This document shows, one piece after another, positions 3,183 through 12,006 of a stretch of DNA of 37,547 bases; the stretch's first letter is position 1; every line of letters begins with the position of its first letter. This DNA is from a virus (Duplodnaviria; Heunggongvirae; Uroviricota; Caudoviricetes). The stretch lies in IMG/VR virus record IMGVR_UViG_2724679539_000004. One strand, given 5' to 3'. Under the pieces are notes generated by a model. It saw only the letters and a program-made list of their open reading frames with translations, was not told the origin of the DNA and did no database searches. The translations under genes were made by a program, and so were the position numbers.

Positions 3183-3292
3183 GTATATTTATCTCATGGC
3201 TTGTTCTGATTATTTCTGTGGCCTGCGCCATTGGGATTATGCGAATTATTCATTCAGTAAAAAAGATTGAACGCTTTTTCACTGGCGAATAA
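3179..3292 (+). CDS. Small membrane peptide (37 aa), hypothetical
   Basis: ATGA overlap with upstream stop; MSIFISWLVLIISVACAIGIMRIIHSVKKIERFFTGE, single TM helix. Confidence 0.3.
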   Translation: MSIFISWLVLIISVACAIGIMRIIHSVKKIERFFTGE

Positions 3293-3378: not shown

Positions 3379-3582
3379 ATGGCAATTAAGCATTTTCCTG
3401 TCGTTCGTTTTACCTCCAGAGGACGTGAATACGAAGTCGACGAACGCCTGATTACCACAATCGACAAACACCGTTCAGAAAAGGATGCACATCACATCTA
3501 TCTCACTGACGGCACTTACTTCTGCGCCACGAATGTGGTGCAGGTGAACCTTATCCGACAGGTACAGGAGTCACGCAGATGA
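3379..3582 (+). CDS. Hypothetical early protein (67 aa)
   Basis: ORF with aaggagg SD; overlaps next gene start by 4 nt. Confidence 0.5.
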   Translation: MAIKHFPVVRFTSRGREYEVDERLITTIDKHRSEKDAHHIYLTDGTYFCATNVVQVNLIRQVQESRR

Positions 3583-3824: not shown

Positions 3825-4120
3825 GCACCATCAACCACCAGAAGCTACGCGAACTGGCATTTGCCCTGCAACGAATGGCAACGCCTCAAAAATTACTGGC
3901 ATTTCGCGCAATGCTCTCGCCGTCTGCTGTGCTGGCACTGCTGGATCAGCTGGAGCACGCCAGAACCACGGCTCCTGCCATTCGCCTCACGCTCCATCAT
4001 GAAATCGCTGATTTCTGCGCAACGCTGGGGGCACCTGGCGAACCGGAAACGCCGGAAGCAATGCAGCAAGAGCTGCTGCAACGCATCGATAACGTTTTTG
4101 ATTTTTTTCTGAACCAGTAA
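3821..4120 (+). CDS. Hypothetical protein with Ea22/Ead-like N-terminal motif
   Basis: 99 aa; N-terminus MSTINHQKLRELA and LALLDQLE motif shared with the two paralogs at 9388 and 9930. Confidence 0.5.
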   Translation: MSTINHQKLRELAFALQRMATPQKLLAFRAMLSPSAVLALLDQLEHARTTAPAIRLTLHHEIADFCATLGAPGEPETPEAMQQELLQRIDNVFDFFLNQ

Positions 4121-4242
4121 GAAACCAGAACATGCACACACAAAAAAACCGCTTGCCATGCCTCAATCGGTCAGGTTACATTTCCGCTGCACCTCATAAA
4201 ACGGGTGCCGGGATTCTCAACCCGATACAGAGCAAAGCGCAT

Positions 4243-4263
4243 AACCGCGCAAGCGGTTTTTTT
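4243..4263 (+). terminator. Rho-independent terminator-like hairpin (ACCGC-GCAA-GCGGT + T7)
   Basis: GNRA-loop hairpin followed by TTTTTTT; perfect 15-bp inverted partner AAAAAAACCGCTTGC at 4142-4156. Confidence 0.5.
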
Positions 4264-4442
4264 GTGCGTACTGTATTGCCACGTCTTTTTCGCGTCAGAA
4301 TTATGGCGGGGCGTACGGGGCCGACTTCGGTCGGGCCGGATTCTTTGCTCTCCGGTGTTGAGAACCCTGTACGTCTCGCCACCCCGAGATTCTCAACTCT
4401 GGATGGTGAGTTATTTCTATCACCGAGCAAAGAGGCCACACC

Positions 4443-4673
4443 ATGGCAGACCGCAAACAGCACCGCGCTATCGCGGAGCGTCGTCACATCCAGACTGAAA
4501 TCAACCGCAGACTTTCCCGCGCATCACGCGTCGCGCAAATCATGCACATCAATATGCTGCATGAGCGCAGCCACGCACTATCAAACATTTATTCCGCCTC
4601 TGTTTTCAGCTATCTGGCGGATGATCTGCACGAGCTTCAACAGCTCATCCAGCAGCAAAACAAACTCCATTAA
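4443..4673 (+). CDS. Hypothetical protein (76 aa)
   Basis: ORF with aagagg SD 9 nt upstream; preferred over overlapping low-complexity 205-aa ORF. Confidence 0.45.
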   Translation: MADRKQHRAIAERRHIQTEINRRLSRASRVAQIMHINMLHERSHALSNIYSASVFSYLADDLHELQQLIQQQNKLH

Positions 4674-4745
4674 TTCCTGTTCCGGGCCTTTCCTGCACCT
4701 TGCGGCGGGAGGCCTTCGCACATCTGTAGTAAAGAGAATTGCAGC

Positions 4746-5135
4746 ATGATTGACGCTCATGACTTCACAAGATGGGTGCGCACACAGGACACCCGTCTGG
4801 CTCCCGTTCTTCAGGGGTTATTTGATCTCTACATCCGTGGTCGTGACAACAGAGCACGCACCACAAAACCGGAGAATGCAGACACCCTTTATTTCACAGT
4901 AGACGACTGCTACCGCGTGGACTTCACACCACACGGACTGGCGTTGCACTGCCTGACACCGCACGGCGAATCACTGCTGGCGTATTACGACTCCCCGGCC
5001 TCCGTATTTGCAGCAATGCTGGCGCATCGCACTGCTGGCGGGTGTGCCTCGCTGAGTGAATACACCGCTGAATTTAACCGCCTTTCCGCCCTCTTCTCGC
5101 AGGAGTGGCAGCGCGTGACGGGATACCAGCCATGA
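4746..5135 (+). CDS. Hypothetical protein (129 aa) translationally coupled to A
   Basis: Stop TGA overlaps ATG of A (ccATGAgt). Confidence 0.55.
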   Translation: MIDAHDFTRWVRTQDTRLAPVLQGLFDLYIRGRDNRARTTKPENADTLYFTVDDCYRVDFTPHGLALHCLTPHGESLLAYYDSPASVFAAMLAHRTAGGCASLSEYTAEFNRLSALFSQEWQRVTGYQP

Positions 5136-7972
5136 GTGCGTTTGCATGGAGCTGGAATGAACCACGACCAGCTATTGATCCGGCCAGATTTACGGAGCGC
5201 AGGCAGGAAACTGAAACCGACCTGCAACGCGCCATCCGTTACTACCTTGAGGCGGACAAAAGGGCACAGAAAGAACAGGAAGCGAAGGAAGAAGCCTTTT
5301 TCGCACAATCCGCCATGGGTAAAAAACTCATGGCATCCCTTGAGGAAGCCGGACAGCGTGAAAAGCTGGCACAGAGCATCATCAGTAAGCGCCGGGCAAC
5401 AGAACAAGACCCGGTAGCCCGTGCCTTTGCCACACTGAAGGCGCTTCCCGTTTATCTGCGAGAACCTCTGAGCCGCCACCTCTCTTTCCTGCGCAAGAAG
5501 CAGGAAGCCGATCGTCAGAAAGGCAAAAAGAGCTGGCAGGCGGAACGCTATGCACGCGGAACCCTGCGCAAAATATTCGAACGTCTGGACCGCACCGACA
5601 GCCGCTGGCTGACACCGGGTTATCGCTCCCTTGCCGGACGCGAACGCCTGGACGATTTGCTTTACCTGCCGCAGCTCAACAAACACCAGATACAGACGCT
5701 GGCCACCATGACAGCGGCGATGTTCAGCAGCACCTTCGAAAAACTCTGCGATGGCTTTGACGCGACTGATGGCGAACTGACCATGGATGTAACGCTGAAG
5801 GCGTATCAGATGCTGGCCCGCATGGCGTTACACCTGCACGCCATGCCTCCACATTATGACGCACTGACAACAGACAAAGACCGGAGGAACGAACCGGACA
5901 CGGAGCTGCTGCCGGGCGCAATCCTTCGCCTGACCTGTGCGGAATGGTGGAAACGCAAACTGTGGCTGTTACGTTGCGAGTGGAGAGAAGAACAACTCCG
6001 CGCCGCCTGTCTGGTTTCCAGAAAAACATCACCCTATCTGAGCCAGGACGCGTTAAGCGAGTTTCGCGCACAGCGCGAGAAAACACGCGATTTCCTGAAA
6101 AGTTTCATACTGGAAAACGAAGACGGGTTCACGATTGATCTCGAGACAGTGTATTACGCGGGAGTAAGTAACCCGGTTCACCGTAAGGCAGAAATGATGG
6201 CCACCATGAAGGGGCTGGAACTTCTGGCCGAAGCCCGTGGCGACAAAGCGGTGTTTCTGACTGTCACCTGCCCGTCAAAATACCACGCCACAACAGAGAA
6301 CGGTCATCCGAATCCCAAATGGAACGGGGCCACCATGCGCGACTCCAGCGATTACCTGGTTAACACGTTTTTTGCGGCGGTCCGCAAAAAACTGAACCGC
6401 GACGGCCTGCGCTGGTATGGCATCCGCACGGTGGAGCCTCACCATGACGGCACCGTGCACTGGCACATGATGGTCTTTGCTCATCCGGAAGAAATCGACA
6501 GCATCGTGGCCATCACCCGCGATATTGCCATTCAGGAAGACCGCCACGAGCTGGGCAATGATATTACTCCGCGCTTTAAGGTGGAGTATGTCGACGGCTC
6601 AAAAGGCACACCAACCAGCTACATCGCCACCTACATCGGAAAGAACCTGGACAGCCGCGCCGTGGATGGCATCGACCCAAAAACGGGCAAGCCACGCGTT
6701 GACCACGAAACCGGAAAATCAATGGCCGAGAGCGTGGAACGCGCCATCGGCTGGGCGCGCCTTCACCGGGTCCGCCAGTTCCAGTTCTTTGGCATTCCCT
6801 CCCGTCAGGTGTGGCGTGAACTCCGCCGCCTTGCCAGCCAGATGGCACGCAACCCGGAAGGCCCGCAACGGCTGAAGGATGACGCAATGGATGCGGTTCT
6901 TGCTGCCGCTGATGCCGGGTGTTTTGCCACCTACATTGAAAAACAGGGTGGCGTACTTGTTCCGCGCAAGGACTACCTGATTCGCACAGCCTACGACCTC
7001 GCAGATGAGCTGAACGATTACGGCGAACAGAGTGTACAGATTTACGGGATCTGGTCGCCACTCATCGGGGAATCCTCCCGTGTGTGCACGCACCCGGATA
7101 ACTGGAAGCTGGTAAGACGTAAACCGGAAGCGGAAGACAGCACCCACGAAAATGGTTTTGACCTTCAGGGCGGCCCTGCCGCCCCTTGGACTCGTGGCAA
7201 TAACTGTCCCCGTGCACAGGAAACGAACAACAACGGGACAGAACAGCCGGAAGAACGGCCAGCACCGTGGCCGCAGCTCCCTGACGGCGTTGAAGTGAAC
7301 GAATGGATGCGCTCACTGAAACGGCACGAACGCCGGGCGCTGATGCGTTCGCTTCGTGACAAACAGGCAAAAAACAGCAGTGATGAAATGCAGAGCTGGA
7401 CACAGAGCCGCAAACAGCAGCGGCCTTTGCCTGATAACCACGAGTTACTCGCTAAAGAATGGCGGGAGTCTGCTGAATCTCTCGGCCTGCATATCGGTGA
7501 ACAGCAGATGCAGCACCTGTTACGGGGCGGCAGCCTGTACGTTGACGACAGCATCATTGCACCGCAGGGGTTTGAAATTGTACGCAAACCGGATACACGC
7601 CCGGACAGCCGAATCACGCAGCTCTGGCAGCGCCTGAGCCGCAATCACGGCGTAAGCAGCACGGAGATCCGCCATAACCCGGTCGCCAGCTATCTGGAAC
7701 AGCTGGGGGCATCAGACCCCGAAGCCGCCGCACGCCTGGCATCCACACTTCAGCAGGACCAGAACACCATGAAAACCCCTGTTACCGTACTTTCTGACAT
7801 GCTGCGCGCCATCCGTGACGCAGAGCACGCACAGAGAATCAGTGAAACCACTGAACGCGCCAGCCGCAAAGCAGACCTGCTGCGGGGTGGCCTGACCAGC
7901 GGAAACAAAAAACAGACAGAAACGGGACTCACGAATCCCGTAAATGAGCAAAAAACGCGCAGCGATATATGA
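5132..7972 (+). CDS. A: Rolling-circle replication initiator endonuclease (P2 gpA-like, HUH)
   Basis: 946 aa; HUH motif HDGTVHWHMMVF; position after early genes as in P2; longer than P2 A (about 761 aa from memory). Confidence 0.9.
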   Translation: MSAFAWSWNEPRPAIDPARFTERRQETETDLQRAIRYYLEADKRAQKEQEAKEEAFFAQSAMGKKLMASLEEAGQREKLAQSIISKRRATEQDPVARAFATLKALPVYLREPLSRHLSFLRKKQEADRQKGKKSWQAERYARGTLRKIFERLDRTDSRWLTPGYRSLAGRERLDDLLYLPQLNKHQIQTLATMTAAMFSSTFEKLCDGFDATDGELTMDVTLKAYQMLARMALHLHAMPPHYDALTTDKDRRNEPDTELLPGAILRLTCAEWWKRKLWLLRCEWREEQLRAACLVSRKTSPYLSQDALSEFRAQREKTRDFLKSFILENEDGFTIDLETVYYAGVSNPVHRKAEMMATMKGLELLAEARGDKAVFLTVTCPSKYHATTENGHPNPKWNGATMRDSSDYLVNTFFAAVRKKLNRDGLRWYGIRTVEPHHDGTVHWHMMVFAHPEEIDSIVAITRDIAIQEDRHELGNDITPRFKVEYVDGSKGTPTSYIATYIGKNLDSRAVDGIDPKTGKPRVDHETGKSMAESVERAIGWARLHRVRQFQFFGIPSRQVWRELRRLASQMARNPEGPQRLKDDAMDAVLAAADAGCFATYIEKQGGVLVPRKDYLIRTAYDLADELNDYGEQSVQIYGIWSPLIGESSRVCTHPDNWKLVRRKPEAEDSTHENGFDLQGGPAAPWTRGNNCPRAQETNNNGTEQPEERPAPWPQLPDGVEVNEWMRSLKRHERRALMRSLRDKQAKNSSDEMQSWTQSRKQQRPLPDNHELLAKEWRESAESLGLHIGEQQMQHLLRGGSLYVDDSIIAPQGFEIVRKPDTRPDSRITQLWQRLSRNHGVSSTEIRHNPVASYLEQLGASDPEAAARLASTLQQDQNTMKTPVTVLSDMLRAIRDAEHAQRISETTERASRKADLLRGGLTSGNKKQTETGLTNPVNEQKTRSDI

Positions 7973-8048: not shown

Positions 8049-9008
8049 ATGAAAATTTGTATCGACGACGGCTCCACCAACATCAAGCTGGCATGGACTG
8101 AGAACGGCGAACGCCGCAACGCCATCAGCCCGAACAGCTTCAAGTCGGAATGGTCTGCGCCGTTCGGTGGCACGCAGCCCGCGAACTACATGCTTGATGG
8201 CGTGCGCTATGGTTTTGATCCGGTCAGCGATCGCTTTGTCCAGACGACCGACACGCAATACCAATACAGCGATGTGAATGTCATTGCCATTCATCACGCG
8301 CTGGTCAAATCAGGCATCACGCCACAGGAGGTGGATGTGGTTGTCACCCTGCCACTGAGCGAGTATTTCGACACAAACGCACAGCCGGACATGGCCAACA
8401 TCAACCGCAAAAAAGCGAACGTTATGCGCCCGGTGGAGTACCAGAACGGCGAAGCATTCACTATCCGTAACGTGCGGGTTATGCCTGAATCCATTCCGGC
8501 TGGCTTTAAGGCACTGGCTGACATGAGTCCGTTTGAATCCCTGCTGATTGTGGATTTGGGCGGAACCACGCTGGATGTGGCAAAGGTTCAGGGGCAACTG
8601 GCAGGTATCAGCCAGGTGTTTTGCGATCCACACGTAGGCGTTTCTCTGATGGCCGATGCCGTACTGTCGGTGATGGCCACTAACGGTATGCGCACCAGTC
8701 ACCACATCGCCAATACCATTATCGAACATCGCCATGATGAAGCCTGGCTGCGCCAGCACATCCACAATGACGCGCATTACGCCAGCCTGATGGCGGTTAT
8801 TCGTGAAAAGGAAGAAACACTGAAACAACGCGTGATCCGCGCGCTGGCGGTTTTTTCGGGTTACGGGCGGGTGATGGTTGTCGGTGGCGGGGCGGAGATT
8901 GTGGCACCCGCTATCCGCGAAGCCTGCGGAGTTAATGCGACTTTCATCGCGGACGGGGTGCCACAGTTTGCTCTGGTTAATGGGCTGTACGCAATGGACA
9001 AGGAGTAA
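8049..9008 (+). CDS. parM: ParM/StbA-like actin-type segregation ATPase
   Basis: 319 aa; N-terminus MKICIDDGSTNIKLAW...ISPNSFKSEW and YQYSDVNVIAIHHAL closely parallel plasmid R1 ParM as recalled; LIVDLGGTTLDV and VMVVGGGAEIVAP actin-fold motifs. Confidence 0.8.
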   Translation: MKICIDDGSTNIKLAWTENGERRNAISPNSFKSEWSAPFGGTQPANYMLDGVRYGFDPVSDRFVQTTDTQYQYSDVNVIAIHHALVKSGITPQEVDVVVTLPLSEYFDTNAQPDMANINRKKANVMRPVEYQNGEAFTIRNVRVMPESIPAGFKALADMSPFESLLIVDLGGTTLDVAKVQGQLAGISQVFCDPHVGVSLMADAVLSVMATNGMRTSHHIANTIIEHRHDEAWLRQHIHNDAHYASLMAVIREKEETLKQRVIRALAVFSGYGRVMVVGGGAEIVAPAIREACGVNATFIADGVPQFALVNGLYAMDKE

Positions 9009-9012
9009 ACCA

Positions 9013-9324
9013 ATGACGACACCAACCAGACGGATAAGTTTCTATCTGAAGCCTGTGGCCGTCAAGAACGAAAGCGAAGCATGCGCCTGGCTGGACAGCC
9101 TTACACCAGAAGCCCGCAAAAGCGGCCAACGCGTGGCTTTTCTGGCCGGGCTGGCACTTCTGAAAATGAATCCAGCAGAGGCTTACCGACTGGCTGCATG
9201 GGCTGACGATGAGGCGTTATCAGTGACACAAACCAGGACAGAATGCCCCGCGTCACAGCCAGTATCAACCGCACAGATAACCAGTCAGATGGCCGGAAAT
9301 ATCCGGGCGTTATTTCCCGAATAA
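9013..9324 (+). CDS. parR: ParR/StbB-like centromere-binding adaptor
   Basis: 103 aa; RRISFYLKPVAV...AFLAGLALLKMNP...IRALFPE parallels R1 ParR as recalled; directly downstream of parM. Confidence 0.6.
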   Translation: MTTPTRRISFYLKPVAVKNESEACAWLDSLTPEARKSGQRVAFLAGLALLKMNPAEAYRLAAWADDEALSVTQTRTECPASQPVSTAQITSQMAGNIRALFPE

Positions 9325-9387
9325 CACAACATCAGGGCGCATCCGCCCTGATCTCCACCTCAGAACATAAACAAGGAGACCGACTTA

Positions 9388-9933
9388 ATGAGCGAAATCA
9401 ACTATCAGGCACTGCGTGAGTTAGCAAAACAGGCAACACAGGGCGAATGGGTCGCATTTATTTCGCCGGGCAAATACGGCACGTACGCCGTGCACACACC
9501 AGGAGATAATCATCACGGAGATATTGTCGACTGGCCTGGATTCGACGGACAGAAAAACGCAGAGAACAACGCTCGTTATATCGCAGCTTTCAACCCTGAA
9601 GTAGTGCAGGCGCTGTTGGATGAACGAGAAGCCCAAAGCAAACGCATTGCAGAGCTGGAGGCTAATTTCACGGTGCTGGCAGTGGAGAATGCCTCAATGA
9701 AGCTGTTTATCAGGGGCTGTTGCTATGTATTTGATGGAGAGCAGGATGAAATATCTGACGCGTATATCTGCGCAACAGACGGAGGAATGCCACAAACCCC
9801 AGCCACCGACGCTTTCCTGGCTGAAGTGCGGGCGCAGGGCGTGGAGATGTTTGCGGAGTGTGCATACACACTTGAACATCATGATCACGCAGTAGCTTTT
9901 GCCGCCGAGCTACGTAAAGGAGGCAGTCAGTGA
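9388..9933 (+). CDS. Ea22/Ead-like protein
   Basis: 181 aa; MSEINYQALRELAKQATQGEW N-terminus typical of Ead/Ea22 family; coiled-coil ALLDEREAQSKRIAELE. Confidence 0.6.
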   Translation: MSEINYQALRELAKQATQGEWVAFISPGKYGTYAVHTPGDNHHGDIVDWPGFDGQKNAENNARYIAAFNPEVVQALLDEREAQSKRIAELEANFTVLAVENASMKLFIRGCCYVFDGEQDEISDAYICATDGGMPQTPATDAFLAEVRAQGVEMFAECAYTLEHHDHAVAFAAELRKGGSQ

Positions 9934-10469
9934 GCAAAATTGACTATCAGGCACTACAAATGGCAGCAGAACGTGCAATTCCGGCAATGGAACGCCTGTT
10001 AATATTGCCAGTTGATGATGATTTGTTAAGCGAACAGGAACTTAAAGATTACGGTGTGGATATTGACGCGATCAACACCTTCAGACTTCTGGCTGGACCG
10101 GAAGACATGCTGGCACTGCTGGATGAACTGGAAATAGCAAAAAAGCGCATCGCTGAACTGGAAAAAATCGCCACTGACTATGCACTTAAATTCCAGAAAG
10201 CACAGGACGCATTAAAGTATGCCGCTTTGCCGCATAGCCGGACGGCGCAACAAACAAATAATCTTGCAGTATCGCTTCCGGACATAAGCGAATATTTCAT
10301 TAATGACGTATTTCAGCCCTTGCGATACGAGCGGGATGTTGAAAGAGCCATCATAAAGGCTGGCGGAAAAGCATTGTGGCAGGAGAAACACGAGGACAGA
10401 ACGCATCAGTCATGCGATGTAAATTGTGGATGGTTTAGCCCACTGACGACAGATAAAAATAACACCTGA
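9930..10469 (+). CDS. Ea22/Ead-like paralog
   Basis: 179 aa; MSKIDYQALQMAAERA and ALLDELEIAKKRIAELE; ATGA-type overlap with upstream paralog. Confidence 0.55.
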   Translation: MSKIDYQALQMAAERAIPAMERLLILPVDDDLLSEQELKDYGVDIDAINTFRLLAGPEDMLALLDELEIAKKRIAELEKIATDYALKFQKAQDALKYAALPHSRTAQQTNNLAVSLPDISEYFINDVFQPLRYERDVERAIIKAGGKALWQEKHEDRTHQSCDVNCGWFSPLTTDKNNT

Positions 10470-10959
10470 TCCCCCTCAAACCAGGGCGATAATCGCACAT
10501 CGCCCTGCTGCACAATAGTGCACAAATTTGCACAATTTTTTTGAACGAATTTTTGCCCTTCCAGCCCGCGTGGCGGCTGGATCCGTCAAGGATCCGTGCG
10601 TGCACAAAAAAACGCGCTTTTTCTGCGCGCAGGTGACGGGGGAACAGCCCGCGTTTCAGGGGGTAAATAGCATTCCCTGAGCGATGTCGCAGCGACACAA
10701 CAGAATGGCTGTATTTCTCACGCTGAGCGTGAAAAAGACGTAAGGGTTTTTGATTTGATGGGTTGAAAGGTAAGGCCGTCAAAATCGCACTGAGGCGGCG
10801 AGAACATACAGTCAACGCGGTGGGATTGCGTAAGAGTCTGACCGTCGATGGTGGCGATAAACTGGAAGGCGTCGTGAAATTATCTGATTGATACAGGAGC
10901 TGGAGAGTCGGGGCATAAATTTTTTATGCCCCGGCGAAGCAGCAGACAAGCGAAGCGCG
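10470..10959. other. cos-containing region between cargo and Q (exact cohesive-end site not identified)
   Basis: Position equivalent to P2 cos; GC-rich elements (gcgtggcggctgg, ggtgacgggggaacagc) resemble but do not match P2/186 cos as recalled. Confidence 0.3.
10910..10932. terminator. Bidirectional hairpin terminator downstream of Q
   Basis: GGGGCATAAA-ttt-TTTATGCCCC perfect palindrome just 3' of Q. Confidence 0.5.
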
Positions 10960-12006
10960 TCAGGCTGTGGGCTGGGTGTCTAACAGTGCGTAAGGGTTAA
11001 AGCGGATCACCTCTTCGCCCAGCCAGTCATTGATGTGCTTCATGGCCTCCATGACGGGCATCAGCTCGTTAATTGCGTAAACCCGCGCGGCCTTCTCCAC
11101 ATCACCAAACGCACTTTTTTCACCCGGCATCGCCCCCATCAGTTGCGGCGGAACGCGGTGCGCAGCCAGCACATCATCACGGGATGCCGCCTTAACATTC
11201 ATGAACTCATCCTTTGCAGTGATCTGCTGGAACGGCAAAATTTGCACCCCCTCTTTGCCCCCGTTGGGCGCATGAATGAGCACGTTTTTAAACGCACCAC
11301 CACCACGTGCCCCCTGTAGCGTTTCTTTCAGGGAGTCCATGCTTTCGCGGTTTACCTGCGCTGCACCGATGTAGATGATGCACCCGGCGTGGGATCCGTT
11401 GTCGTAATACAGTTTTCTGAACATGTCCGCCGAATGAGACAGGCTGGCCGAGAGTAATGCGCCGAGATATTCCGGCATGCCGTAGATTTCCTGGTTAATG
11501 TCAGGATTCATCAGGTGGCACACTTTGCCAGGGCGAAACTGAAACGCATCCTTGCCATCCTGCACATACCACCATGATTCAAGATCGCTTCCGCGTCGCA
11601 TGTATTTCGCCAGTGCGTGCCGTAATTTAAGCGGTTCGCCGAGCATATTGCTTCGAAGCTCAAGGAATGCGTTACCGAACACAAACCAGTCCAGCGCCAG
11701 CGCCGAGAAATCCTGCCGGGAAAGCAGCGGGTGCGGGATGTAGCAGCCGAGTAATACATTGCGCTTAAAGTAAAGCGCAGACTGATGCCAGGACGTTTGC
11801 CGGGCAGCTCTTGCCAGACCGTACCAGTCTACCGGGGTTTCATACCACCGCCCGTTATCAGCACAGTACATATTGTCCAGCAGATCATGCCCGGTCAGGC
11901 GATAAGGACCATCAAATGTGAATGCACTGAGCGATGATTCTTTCCTGAGCGCATCAGCGAGATCAATGCGTGAACTCATGCGCACTTTTTTATTTTTTCT
12001 GCTCAT
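10960..12006 (-). CDS. Q: Portal protein (P2 gpQ-like)
   Basis: 348 aa; size/position match P2 Q; ATGA overlap with P stop. Confidence 0.85.
   Translation of the reverse strand: MSRKNKKVRMSSRIDLADALRKESSLSAFTFDGPYRLTGHDLLDNMYCADNGRWYETPVDWYGLARAARQTSWHQSALYFKRNVLLGCYIPHPLLSRQDFSALALDWFVFGNAFLELRSNMLGEPLKLRHALAKYMRRGSDLESWWYVQDGKDAFQFRPGKVCHLMNPDINQEIYGMPEYLGALLSASLSHSADMFRKLYYDNGSHAGCIIYIGAAQVNRESMDSLKETLQGARGGGAFKNVLIHAPNGGKEGVQILPFQQITAKDEFMNVKAASRDDVLAAHRVPPQLMGAMPGEKSAFGDVEKAARVYAINELMPVMEAMKHINDWLGEEVIRFNPYALLDTQPTA

Follow-up and report, generated by a model that had tools for sequence, protein, structure and literature searches.

The DNA analyzed here is a stretch of 37,547 nucleotides (nt) recorded in IMG/VR as a tailed-phage sequence (Caudoviricetes; IMGVR_UViG_2724679539_000004), and the whole of it is referred to as the window. 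Its region 4121-4442 is very probably an IsrK-C4 antisense-RNA control module, which lies inside the early operon of a P88-like (P2-family) Escherichia coli prophage. We base this identification on matches to two Rfam families, the fold of the C4 RNA, the positions of short pairing boxes, the gene order, the co-variation of the boxes among related modules, and the homology of the downstream gene to epsilon of phage P4. Family membership, architecture, pairing potential, and the conservation of this potential by co-variation are established. An earlier description of the same region, made from its letters alone (the sequence-only reading), had proposed a structured noncoding region that could be a small RNA (sRNA), a terminator or antiterminator, or a regulator-binding array.

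The two RNAs, their pairing boxes, and the regulated gene

Families were assigned with Rfam covariance models and their curated gathering scores. The isrK model (RF01394) matched positions 4189-4263 over its full length with 63.1 bits (gathering score, 50), and the C4 antisense RNA model (RF01695) matched 4299-4386, also over its full length (model positions 1-87), with 78.5 bits (gathering score, 45). The proposal of an sRNA was thus right, and the region holds two of them, both scoring above the family thresholds.

The IsrK-like sRNA (4189-4263, plus strand), which corresponds to the a1b1 element and to seqA of P4, was delimited by its Rfam match, fold, and a terminator scan. All of its parts are on the plus strand and follow one another as hairpin 1 (4189-4208), hairpin 2 (4209-4224) with box a1 in its loop (4214-4221), box b1 (4229-4237), and a terminator. 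The latter reads AACCGC-GCAA-GCGGTT at 4243-4258, with a GCAA loop, and continues into a run of seven U residues (4257-4263). As had been noticed before, the 3' arm of a long inverted repeat falls within this GNRA-loop terminator, which ends the IsrK-like RNA. A candidate sigma-70 promoter (TTGCCA-18 nt-TACATT, 4153-4182, plus strand) has its predicted start at about 4189, the first position of the isrK match. Judged by sequence, this RNA would therefore possess both its own promoter (4153-4182) and a 3' intrinsic terminator (4243-4263), as expected of a member of the isrK family. The promoter hexamers are almost invariant in the relatives, and the order -35, about 17 nt, -10, about 6 nt precedes the first hairpin in the window, P1, P4, Gifsy-1, and PA2, that is, in all five loci compared. 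The same arrangement constitutes the experimentally used PisrK promoter of Gifsy-1 (PMC4825925) and the promoter annotated as P1c4 (P51b) in the P1 GenBank record. Another promoter-like site (TTGCCA-17 nt-AATTAT, 4276-4304) was rejected as a conserved promoter: its -35 element reads TCGCCA in about half of the relatives, and a start from it would truncate the C4 stem.

The C4 antisense RNA (4299-4386, plus strand) is composed of an outer stem (4304-4320 paired with 4365-4381), two inner hairpins, and a single-stranded junction, all on the plus strand. The first inner hairpin, helix P2, is the UUCG hairpin (CCGAC-UUCG-GUCGG) that the sequence-only reading had recognized; it occupies 4321-4334, and the span of 4322-4339 given there was a few bases too long. 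The loop of the second inner hairpin (4335-4356) carries box b' (TCTTTGCTCT, 4342-4351), and box a' (GTTGAGAA, 4357-4364) remains single stranded. A tRNA-like stem and a 3' GCCACC end are visible in C4. By analogy with the P1 annotation, C4 is predicted to be a stable RNA with ends at 4305 and 4383, the former generated by RNase P. Folded alone, this predicted mature form (4305-4383) adopted the family structure as its minimum free energy (MFE) structure at -47.1 kcal/mol (73% of the ensemble; z score, -5.3), with both a' and b' unpaired. When C4 was folded in cis with the leader that follows it, a' and b' paired with two downstream boxes, a2 and b2, covering a Shine-Dalgarno sequence.

The short repeats of the region are these boxes. 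The repeat TTCTCAAC occurs at 4214 and 4390 and its complement at 4357-4364, and the sequence-only reading had noticed this set, placing the two direct copies at 4212 and 4388. Of only 4 copies in the whole window (37.5 kb; about 1.0 expected), three fall in the region. A further set, overlooked at that time, comprises AGAGCAAAG at 4229, GAGCAAAGA at 4425, and the complement TCTTTGCTCT at 4342-4351. Accordingly, the copies of GATTCTCAAC are the target boxes a1 and a2, and those of GAGCAAAG are b1 and b2. Box a' (4357-4364) pairs with a2 (UUCUCAAC, 4390-4397, plus strand), which lies just after C4, and b' (4342-4350) pairs with the b2 core GAGCAAAGA (4425-4433). The whole b2 box (4425-4435, plus strand) overlaps the Shine-Dalgarno sequence AAGAGG (4430-4435) of a gene for a 76-amino-acid protein. 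The second target set, a1 and b1, is situated upstream of C4. In a scan of the window for further C4 targets, each 8-mer was found only once more (34657 on the plus strand and 6475 on the minus strand), and the two never occurred as a pair. Between a2 and b2, folding revealed a spacer hairpin (GGUGA...UCACC, 4405-4424, plus strand), which may help to present both boxes. By eye, a hairpin at this place is kept with differing sequences in the relatives, P4, PA2, and Gifsy-1.

The 76-amino-acid gene (4443-4673, plus strand) starts directly after the RNA region. Its product scored 32.5 bits with the Pfam family PF25738, "Derepression" (gathering score, 27). It was 32% identical to P4 epsilon over 50 amino acids in a BLASTP comparison (E value, 6e-9), and RefSeq calls it "derepression protein"; NCBIfam returned nothing for this protein or for the 129-amino-acid product of the next gene. 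The gene after C4 is thus a homologue of P4 epsilon, and the prophage carries a repressor of the P2 C type. P4 epsilon reportedly inactivates the P2 C repressor, a finding attributed to Liu, Renberg and Haggard-Ljungquist in 1998. No Tum-type anti-repressor was recognized by Pfam among the five open reading frames (ORFs) scanned between the partition genes and the portal gene (9013-12006). The region had been suggested to control expression of the replication gene A; the position of b2 on the ribosome-binding site of the 76-amino-acid gene, which the sequence-only reading had not linked with the region, does not support A as the immediate target. A polar effect on A (5132-7972) is plausible by analogy.

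Co-variation of the boxes in related modules

Related modules were collected from IMG/VR, genomes, and assemblies. They amounted to 100, of which 54 were distinct in sequence, and the counts below refer to the latter unless stated otherwise. The noncoding region is 82 to 100% identical among close relatives, and the 76-amino-acid protein is 60 to 100% identical among the collected loci. Differences among the modules are concentrated in the six boxes, which fall into 6 a-types and about 12 b-types that occur in different combinations. In every module a1 equals a2 and both are the complement of a', and b1, b2, and b' are related likewise, a few single mismatches or wobbles aside. Two-sided changes were observed at 6 of 8 pairs between a' and a2, 6 of 9 between b' and b2, 6 of 8 between a1 and a', and 7 of 9 between b1 and b'. 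About 98.5% of cells were paired, compared with roughly 40% when the partners were slid by 1 to 3 columns, and the observed covariation score was reached by no shuffle. The predicted duplex energy was -24.6 kcal/mol for a module paired with its own targets and -10.8 kcal/mol for foreign targets. The stems of C4 itself displayed two-sided changes at 3 pairs of the outer stem and 2 pairs of the UUCG hairpin, with at least 99.9% of cells paired.

The three-way co-variation of the boxes is strong evidence, drawn from sequence comparison, that selection acts on both interactions of C4, the one with the mRNA leader as well as the one with the IsrK-like RNA, and that their specificity is diversifying. 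Specificity of the switch resides in the a and b boxes, and diversification of this kind is expected of an immunity determinant, as in P1 versus P7.

In some related P2-like prophages, two complete modules of different box types occur in tandem, with an identical left arm of the long inverted repeat ahead of each. At loci L094-L096, isrK at 3247, C4 at 3357, and the gene at 3501 are followed by a second isrK at 3859, C4 at 3969, and gene at 4113; at L097, the second isrK and C4 are located at 4076 and 4186. The specificity type of the window, CTTTGCTC-N6-GTTGAGAA, was not shared with other phage backbones or satellites in IMG/VR. Among the matches to this pattern, 39 had P88-like or C4-type flanks (37 both, 2 one only) and 19 were chance occurrences. 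In one E. coli assembly (GCA_003287845.1, 3100-5732 and flanks; locus L100), the module, an epsilon-like gene, and a shorter gene of the GPA family lie among DUF1627, DUF977, and antiterminator Q genes. The placement of a module among such lambdoid-type genes suggests movement between phage types.

Proposed operation of the module and competing explanations

We infer promoter activity, RNase P processing, a translational block, polarity on A, and anti-repressor activity, and the module would then operate as follows. Transcription would start at about 4189 from the promoter at 4153-4182, which is internal to the early operon and so could be active in a lysogen. Most transcripts would stop at the GCAA-loop terminator (4263), yielding an IsrK-like RNA of about 75 nt that displays a1 in a hairpin loop and b1 just after it. 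C4 would be contained in read-through transcripts and in those from the upstream early promoter, from which RNase P probably cuts it out as a tRNA-like RNA of about 79 nt (4305-4383), in which a hairpin loop exposes b' and a single-stranded junction exposes a'. Pairing of a' and b' with a2 (4390-4397) and b2 (4425-4433) would cover the Shine-Dalgarno sequence and block translation of the 76-amino-acid gene. The untranslated RNA would be prone to premature termination, and less orf129 and A would be made, by analogy with the Rho-dependent polarity that follows the icd block in P1 and the CI-dependent termination in P4. The IsrK-like RNA, having the same boxes, would bind C4 and modulate its action, either as a decoy that relieves repression (shown for Gifsy-1 and proposed for P1) or as a second target for termination (as in P4).

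It should be noted that several points weigh against this account. The use of the promoter, the RNA ends, and the processing by RNase P are suggested by analogy. The region does not belong to the c4-a1b1 family (RF03163), since its best score was 15.9 bits at 4176-4228 compared with the 46.7 bits required; two hairpins, the second with a1 in its loop, are present all the same, and this stretch is captured by the isrK model. The a1/b1 element is activating in Gifsy-1 and required for immunity in P4, so that here it may act in either direction. Gifsy-1 also involves translation of a small ORF, and with a similar open frame at 4303-4749 the mechanism may be more complex than occlusion of the Shine-Dalgarno sequence. 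The similarity of the 76-amino-acid protein to epsilon is modest, and its anti-repressor-like nature is presumed by analogy. Furthermore, the module resides in an operon that is already shut off by the C repressor, and the need for a second layer is not obvious.

The main output might instead be termination of transcription, as in P4, with C4 pairing to a1/b1 and a2/b2 on nascent transcripts, which would then end prematurely in a Rho-dependent manner. Neither the epsilon-like gene nor A could be expressed by the prophage or by a superinfecting phage of its type, which would amount to a second, RNA-based immunity. We regard this version, which overlaps the translational account and does not exclude it, as a minor though real possibility. 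As in P4-type systems, an RNA of the CI/C4 family has complementary sites upstream and downstream of it on one transcript; in P4, too, an isrK-C4 pair precedes epsilon and a replication gene, and the CI RNA is described as pairing with seqA and seqC to terminate transcription (PMC4825925; PMC3632133). The reassorting hypervariable boxes and the tandem modules of differing types fit selection for immunity specificity, and the essential gene A is downstream in every relative examined. However, b2 is positioned exactly on the Shine-Dalgarno sequence; it is so placed in P1 as well, in which a block of translation is the primary event. No downstream termination site was identified. A different explanation, by which a regulatory protein (Cox, the winged-helix protein, or C) binds the repeats as DNA, corresponds to the regulator-binding array of the sequence-only reading and can be discounted almost completely. 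Motifs of 8 to 10 nt do recur in direct and inverted orientation within 200 bp, but they vary freely among close relatives while their complementarity to the C4 loop and junction is always kept, whereas a protein site would be conserved in sequence. They also sit at the positions of the P1 a/b RNA targets, in a region that matches two RNA families, and their three-way co-variation marks them as RNA-RNA pairing boxes.

That the region encodes a protein, either a 205-amino-acid "Ash-like" ORF (4132-4749) or one of two 97-amino-acid ORFs on either strand, is hardly credible. The 205-amino-acid frame is open in 51 of the 54 relatives and has a weak match to Pfam Phage_ASH (18.6 bits), and the P88 record has an annotated minus-strand ORF over the stretch. 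In addition, the frame that begins at a conserved AUG at the 5' end of C4 (4303; 148 codons) forms an ATGA overlap with the start of orf129 (4746) in about 82 of the 100 modules. Such an overlap may reflect inheritance or hint at translational coupling. However, the Phage_ASH score is below the gathering score of 26, and the Ash family itself matches the old P4 "cI ORF" over the CI RNA gene. Where the 205-amino-acid frame overlaps the 76-amino-acid gene, the synonymous fraction was 0.58 in the frame of the latter and 0.18 in that of the former; variation in the region follows RNA pairing, not codons, and the two 97-amino-acid ORFs are interrupted in many relatives. Given this substitution pattern, the interruptions, and the subthreshold Ash match, both coding readings were rejected. 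The earlier statement that there is no convincing ORF thus holds in substance: mechanical ORFs cross the region, and the overlap has a coding signature only in the 76-amino-acid frame.

Three observations on annotation belong here. The plus-strand frame at 4303-4749 crosses the 76-amino-acid gene without selection at the amino acid level, and its start corresponds to that of Gifsy-1 orf45. The old P4 "cI" ORF (locus L086, 8168-8584, minus strand), which scored 59.7 bits with Phage_ASH (PF10554), lies over the CI (C4-family) RNA gene, and the Phage_ASH family seems to be, at least in part, the translation of an RNA locus. In RefSeq, P88 (locus L002) has a 62-amino-acid hypothetical protein without a Pfam match across the IsrK/C4 region (5033-5221, minus strand). 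Of the 54 relatives, 10 have interruptions in the ORF that corresponds to it in the window, and the annotated ORF is probably spurious. Apart from it, the stretch 4121-4442 is unannotated in RefSeq and GenBank records.

The long inverted repeat is real and not a product of chance. As the sequence-only reading had stated, it is perfect over 15 nt, with AAAAAAACCGCTTGC at 4142-4156, GCAAGCGGTTTTTTT at 4249-4263, and 92 nt between them; at 95% identity it extends to 21 nt (4136-4156 and 4249-4269). By a rough estimate, about 0.004 perfect 15-nt inverted repeats within about 120 nt would be expected in a window of this size. The left arm (4136-4156, plus strand; perfect core, 4142-4156) forms the left boundary of the module and is made up, in this order, of an A-tract, the motif CCGC, and four bases that open the -35 hexamer of the IsrK promoter. 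The right arm (4249-4269, plus strand) takes in the terminator loop, the 3' half of its stem, the U-tract, and GUGCGU. The left-arm core AAAAACCGCTTGCC is invariant in 54 of 54 distinct modules and the flank further upstream differs; the more distant homologues L100 and L102 have the same left arm.

One could suppose that the repeat forms a helix in the RNA and thereby ties the action of the IsrK terminator to the start point of the transcript, or that its duplex of about 21 bp is an RNase III site. Transcripts from the upstream early promoter would carry the left arm, which would replace the terminator hairpin and refold a1/b1, and they would read through; those from the IsrK promoter would be devoid of it and terminate, which would add to the proposed switch. 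We judge this unlikely. A repeat of this length is very improbable by chance, and the helix was the MFE structure of upstream-started transcripts (-54.4 kcal/mol; z score, -6), 11.2 kcal/mol better than the fold with the terminator enforced and with IsrK hairpin 2 also refolded. Since the left arm is just upstream of the predicted IsrK start, only transcripts initiated upstream carry it. The repeat was found in every examined module embedded in a P2-like early operon. P4, Gifsy-1, and PA2 lack it, their best upstream matches having at least 6 mismatches in 15. In a divergent Salmonella locus (L093), two pairs exhibit two-sided changes and the extension of the helix is kept. Against this, 14 of the 21 pairs are invariant, and no more than one sequence accounts for the two-sided changes. 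The pair 4154:4251 is broken without compensation in 47 of 54 relatives, so the perfect 15-mer of the window is a minority state. Both arms are also constrained otherwise, the left by the A-tract and the -35 element and the right as terminator. Moreover, the partner of the left arm in the terminator is the 3' half and not the 5' half. This pairing cannot arise before the local hairpin, which is kinetically unfavorable for antitermination; pairing of the A-tract with the U-tract could instead strengthen termination. For the proposal that the long repeat acts as a terminator or antiterminator, support came only from thermodynamics, and covariation added almost none.

Taken jointly, the two ideas would make the mid-operon IsrK-C4 module a second, RNA-based, hypervariable layer of immunity and induction in P88-type "helper-type" phages, with a left arm that renders the IsrK terminator and the a1/b1 decoy dependent on the promoter used. 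We offer this combination tentatively and consider it rather improbable. If it held, transcripts of the lytic phase would continue past the terminator, and those begun at the internal promoter would end there and yield IsrK.

Prophage context and relation to known systems

The window is an E. coli prophage of the P88/Xuanwuvirus type (P2 family) that adjoins pdxB. It is a complete P2-like prophage, in which integrase, C, Cox, GPA, and portal genes are present, and not a P4-like satellite. A 601-bp query (window 4100-4700) matched many E. coli chromosomes with 100% identity and P88, PhiR44_2, and other P88-like Xuanwuvirus phages with about 92%; similar sequence is carried by 1,293 of 5,426 complete E. 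coli genomes, about a quarter. The integrase gene (1-1020) and the gene of a P2 C-type repressor (1102-1422; 42% identical to P2 C) are on the minus strand. Cox (1536-1823) and several small early genes precede the RNA region. After the 76-amino-acid gene, and in the same transcription unit, come orf129, of unknown function (4746-5135, plus strand), and the gene of the replication endonuclease A (5132-7972, plus strand; Pfam Phage_GPA, 435.6 bits; RefSeq start at about 5132). The assignment of this stretch (4746-7972, plus strand) also draws on phrog_3237 and RefSeq annotation. Directly downstream of A, genes for ParM-like (8049-9008, plus strand) and StbB-like (9013-9324, plus strand) plasmid partition proteins were observed, and P88 has them likewise.

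Homology among the relatives ends just upstream of the left arm (at about 4139; about 4121-4141 in the window; loci L005, L046, L065, L076, L082, L090, L091, L094, and L097). The cargo genes that precede the module differ by prophage and include Band_7, DNA methyltransferase, helix-turn-helix protein, and DUF4406 genes, which indicates that the left edge of the module is a mosaic boundary. P88 was recovered after mitomycin C treatment, in a paper that does not mention any RNA regulator (PMC5285337). No description of an IsrK-C4 module or epsilon-like gene in P88, Xuanwuvirus, or P2-like phages was found in the searchable literature, so that its place ahead of such a gene in P2-like phages seems not to be on record there.

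In itself, the region is an antisense-RNA switch of a textbook kind that standard Rfam annotation can find, and the main value of its identification is correct annotation. Beyond this, the occurrence of the module with an epsilon-like gene in P2-like phages, the helpers exploited by P4 with its own epsilon, bears on the exchange of regulatory parts between P4 and its helpers. The clean three-way covariation, reassorting types, and tandem modules constitute a natural data set on the diversification of RNA-based immunity specificities. The switch could also be the route by which these prophages are induced, provided that their epsilon-like protein inactivates the P2-type C repressor.

IsrK is equivalent to seqA and C4 to the CI RNA of P4, and the "IsrK-C4 immunity system" has been described as similar in P1, P7, N15, and lambdoid prophages (PMC3632133). 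The idea of a competition between a1/b1 and a2/b2 for C4 is treated in the supplement of PMC2864571. In the Stx lambdoid phages PA2 and VT2phi_272, the DNA across isrK and C4 is about 71% identical to the window, both families score above threshold, and the spacing is the same. The pair precedes regulator or anti-repressor genes there, and these phages differ from the window in phage type, downstream gene, a/b boxes, and the lack of the long repeat. The isrK-orf45 (STnc1160)-anrP locus of Gifsy-1 has, as is proposed for the window, an isrK with its own promoter and a leaky terminator (PMC4825925). A C4-family RNA that coincides with orf45/STnc1160 begins 25 nt after isrK, an anti-repressor-like gene follows about 55 nt after C4, and the start of orf45 is the conserved AUG at the 5' end of C4, whose counterpart in the window is at 4303. 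IsrK of Gifsy-1 activates translation of the downstream anti-repressor in trans, and binding of Hfq and action in trans on its own read-through transcript are known for this IsrK only (PMC4825925). In contrast to the window, Gifsy-1 is a lambdoid phage, its anti-repressor AnrP is unrelated, it has no long inverted repeat, and it passes the c4-a1b1 threshold. In addition, orf45 has 45 codons and is translationally coupled to anrP, whereas the frame in the window has 148 codons and the target gene its own Shine-Dalgarno sequence under b2.

The immI region of P1 and P7 (a1 b1-c4-a2 b2-icd-ant) shares the C4 family with the window, and its regulated function is an anti-repressor, as is predicted for the window. 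In the P1 GenBank record, a1, b1, C4, a2, b2, and icd are at the same relative positions as in the window: a1 is in the loop of hairpin 2, b1 follows about 8 nt later, a2 begins about 4 to 7 nt after the 3' end of C4, and b2 ends about 10 nt before the start codon. Unlike the window, P1 matches the c4-a1b1 model and not isrK, the first gene after its C4 is icd, with that of the unrelated Ant1/2 anti-repressor next, and its upstream promoter is controlled by C1. As in the window, the box sequences set specificity, and in P1 and P7 this is the basis of heteroimmunity.

P4 differs from the window in being an 11.6-kb satellite in which the module leads the left operon, whereas that of the window is embedded midway among the early-operon genes of a complete P2-like phage, which has its own C/Cox switch. 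The epsilon-like gene of the window comes directly after C4, with b2 on its Shine-Dalgarno sequence, and P4 epsilon is located about 245 nt after the C4 match. The replication proteins are unrelated in kind (GPA endonuclease in the window and alpha primase in P4), and no similarity was detected between orf129 and P4 orf151. P4 also lacks the long inverted repeat, and its c4-a1b1 score of 44.1 is just below the threshold of 46.7. In both, an isrK-family RNA is followed by a C4-family RNA in the same order and on the same strand, each above its Rfam threshold, and the promoter has the same relative position. Two boxes of C4 are complementary to an upstream and a downstream site, and a homologous derepression protein (epsilon) and a replication gene are encoded downstream.

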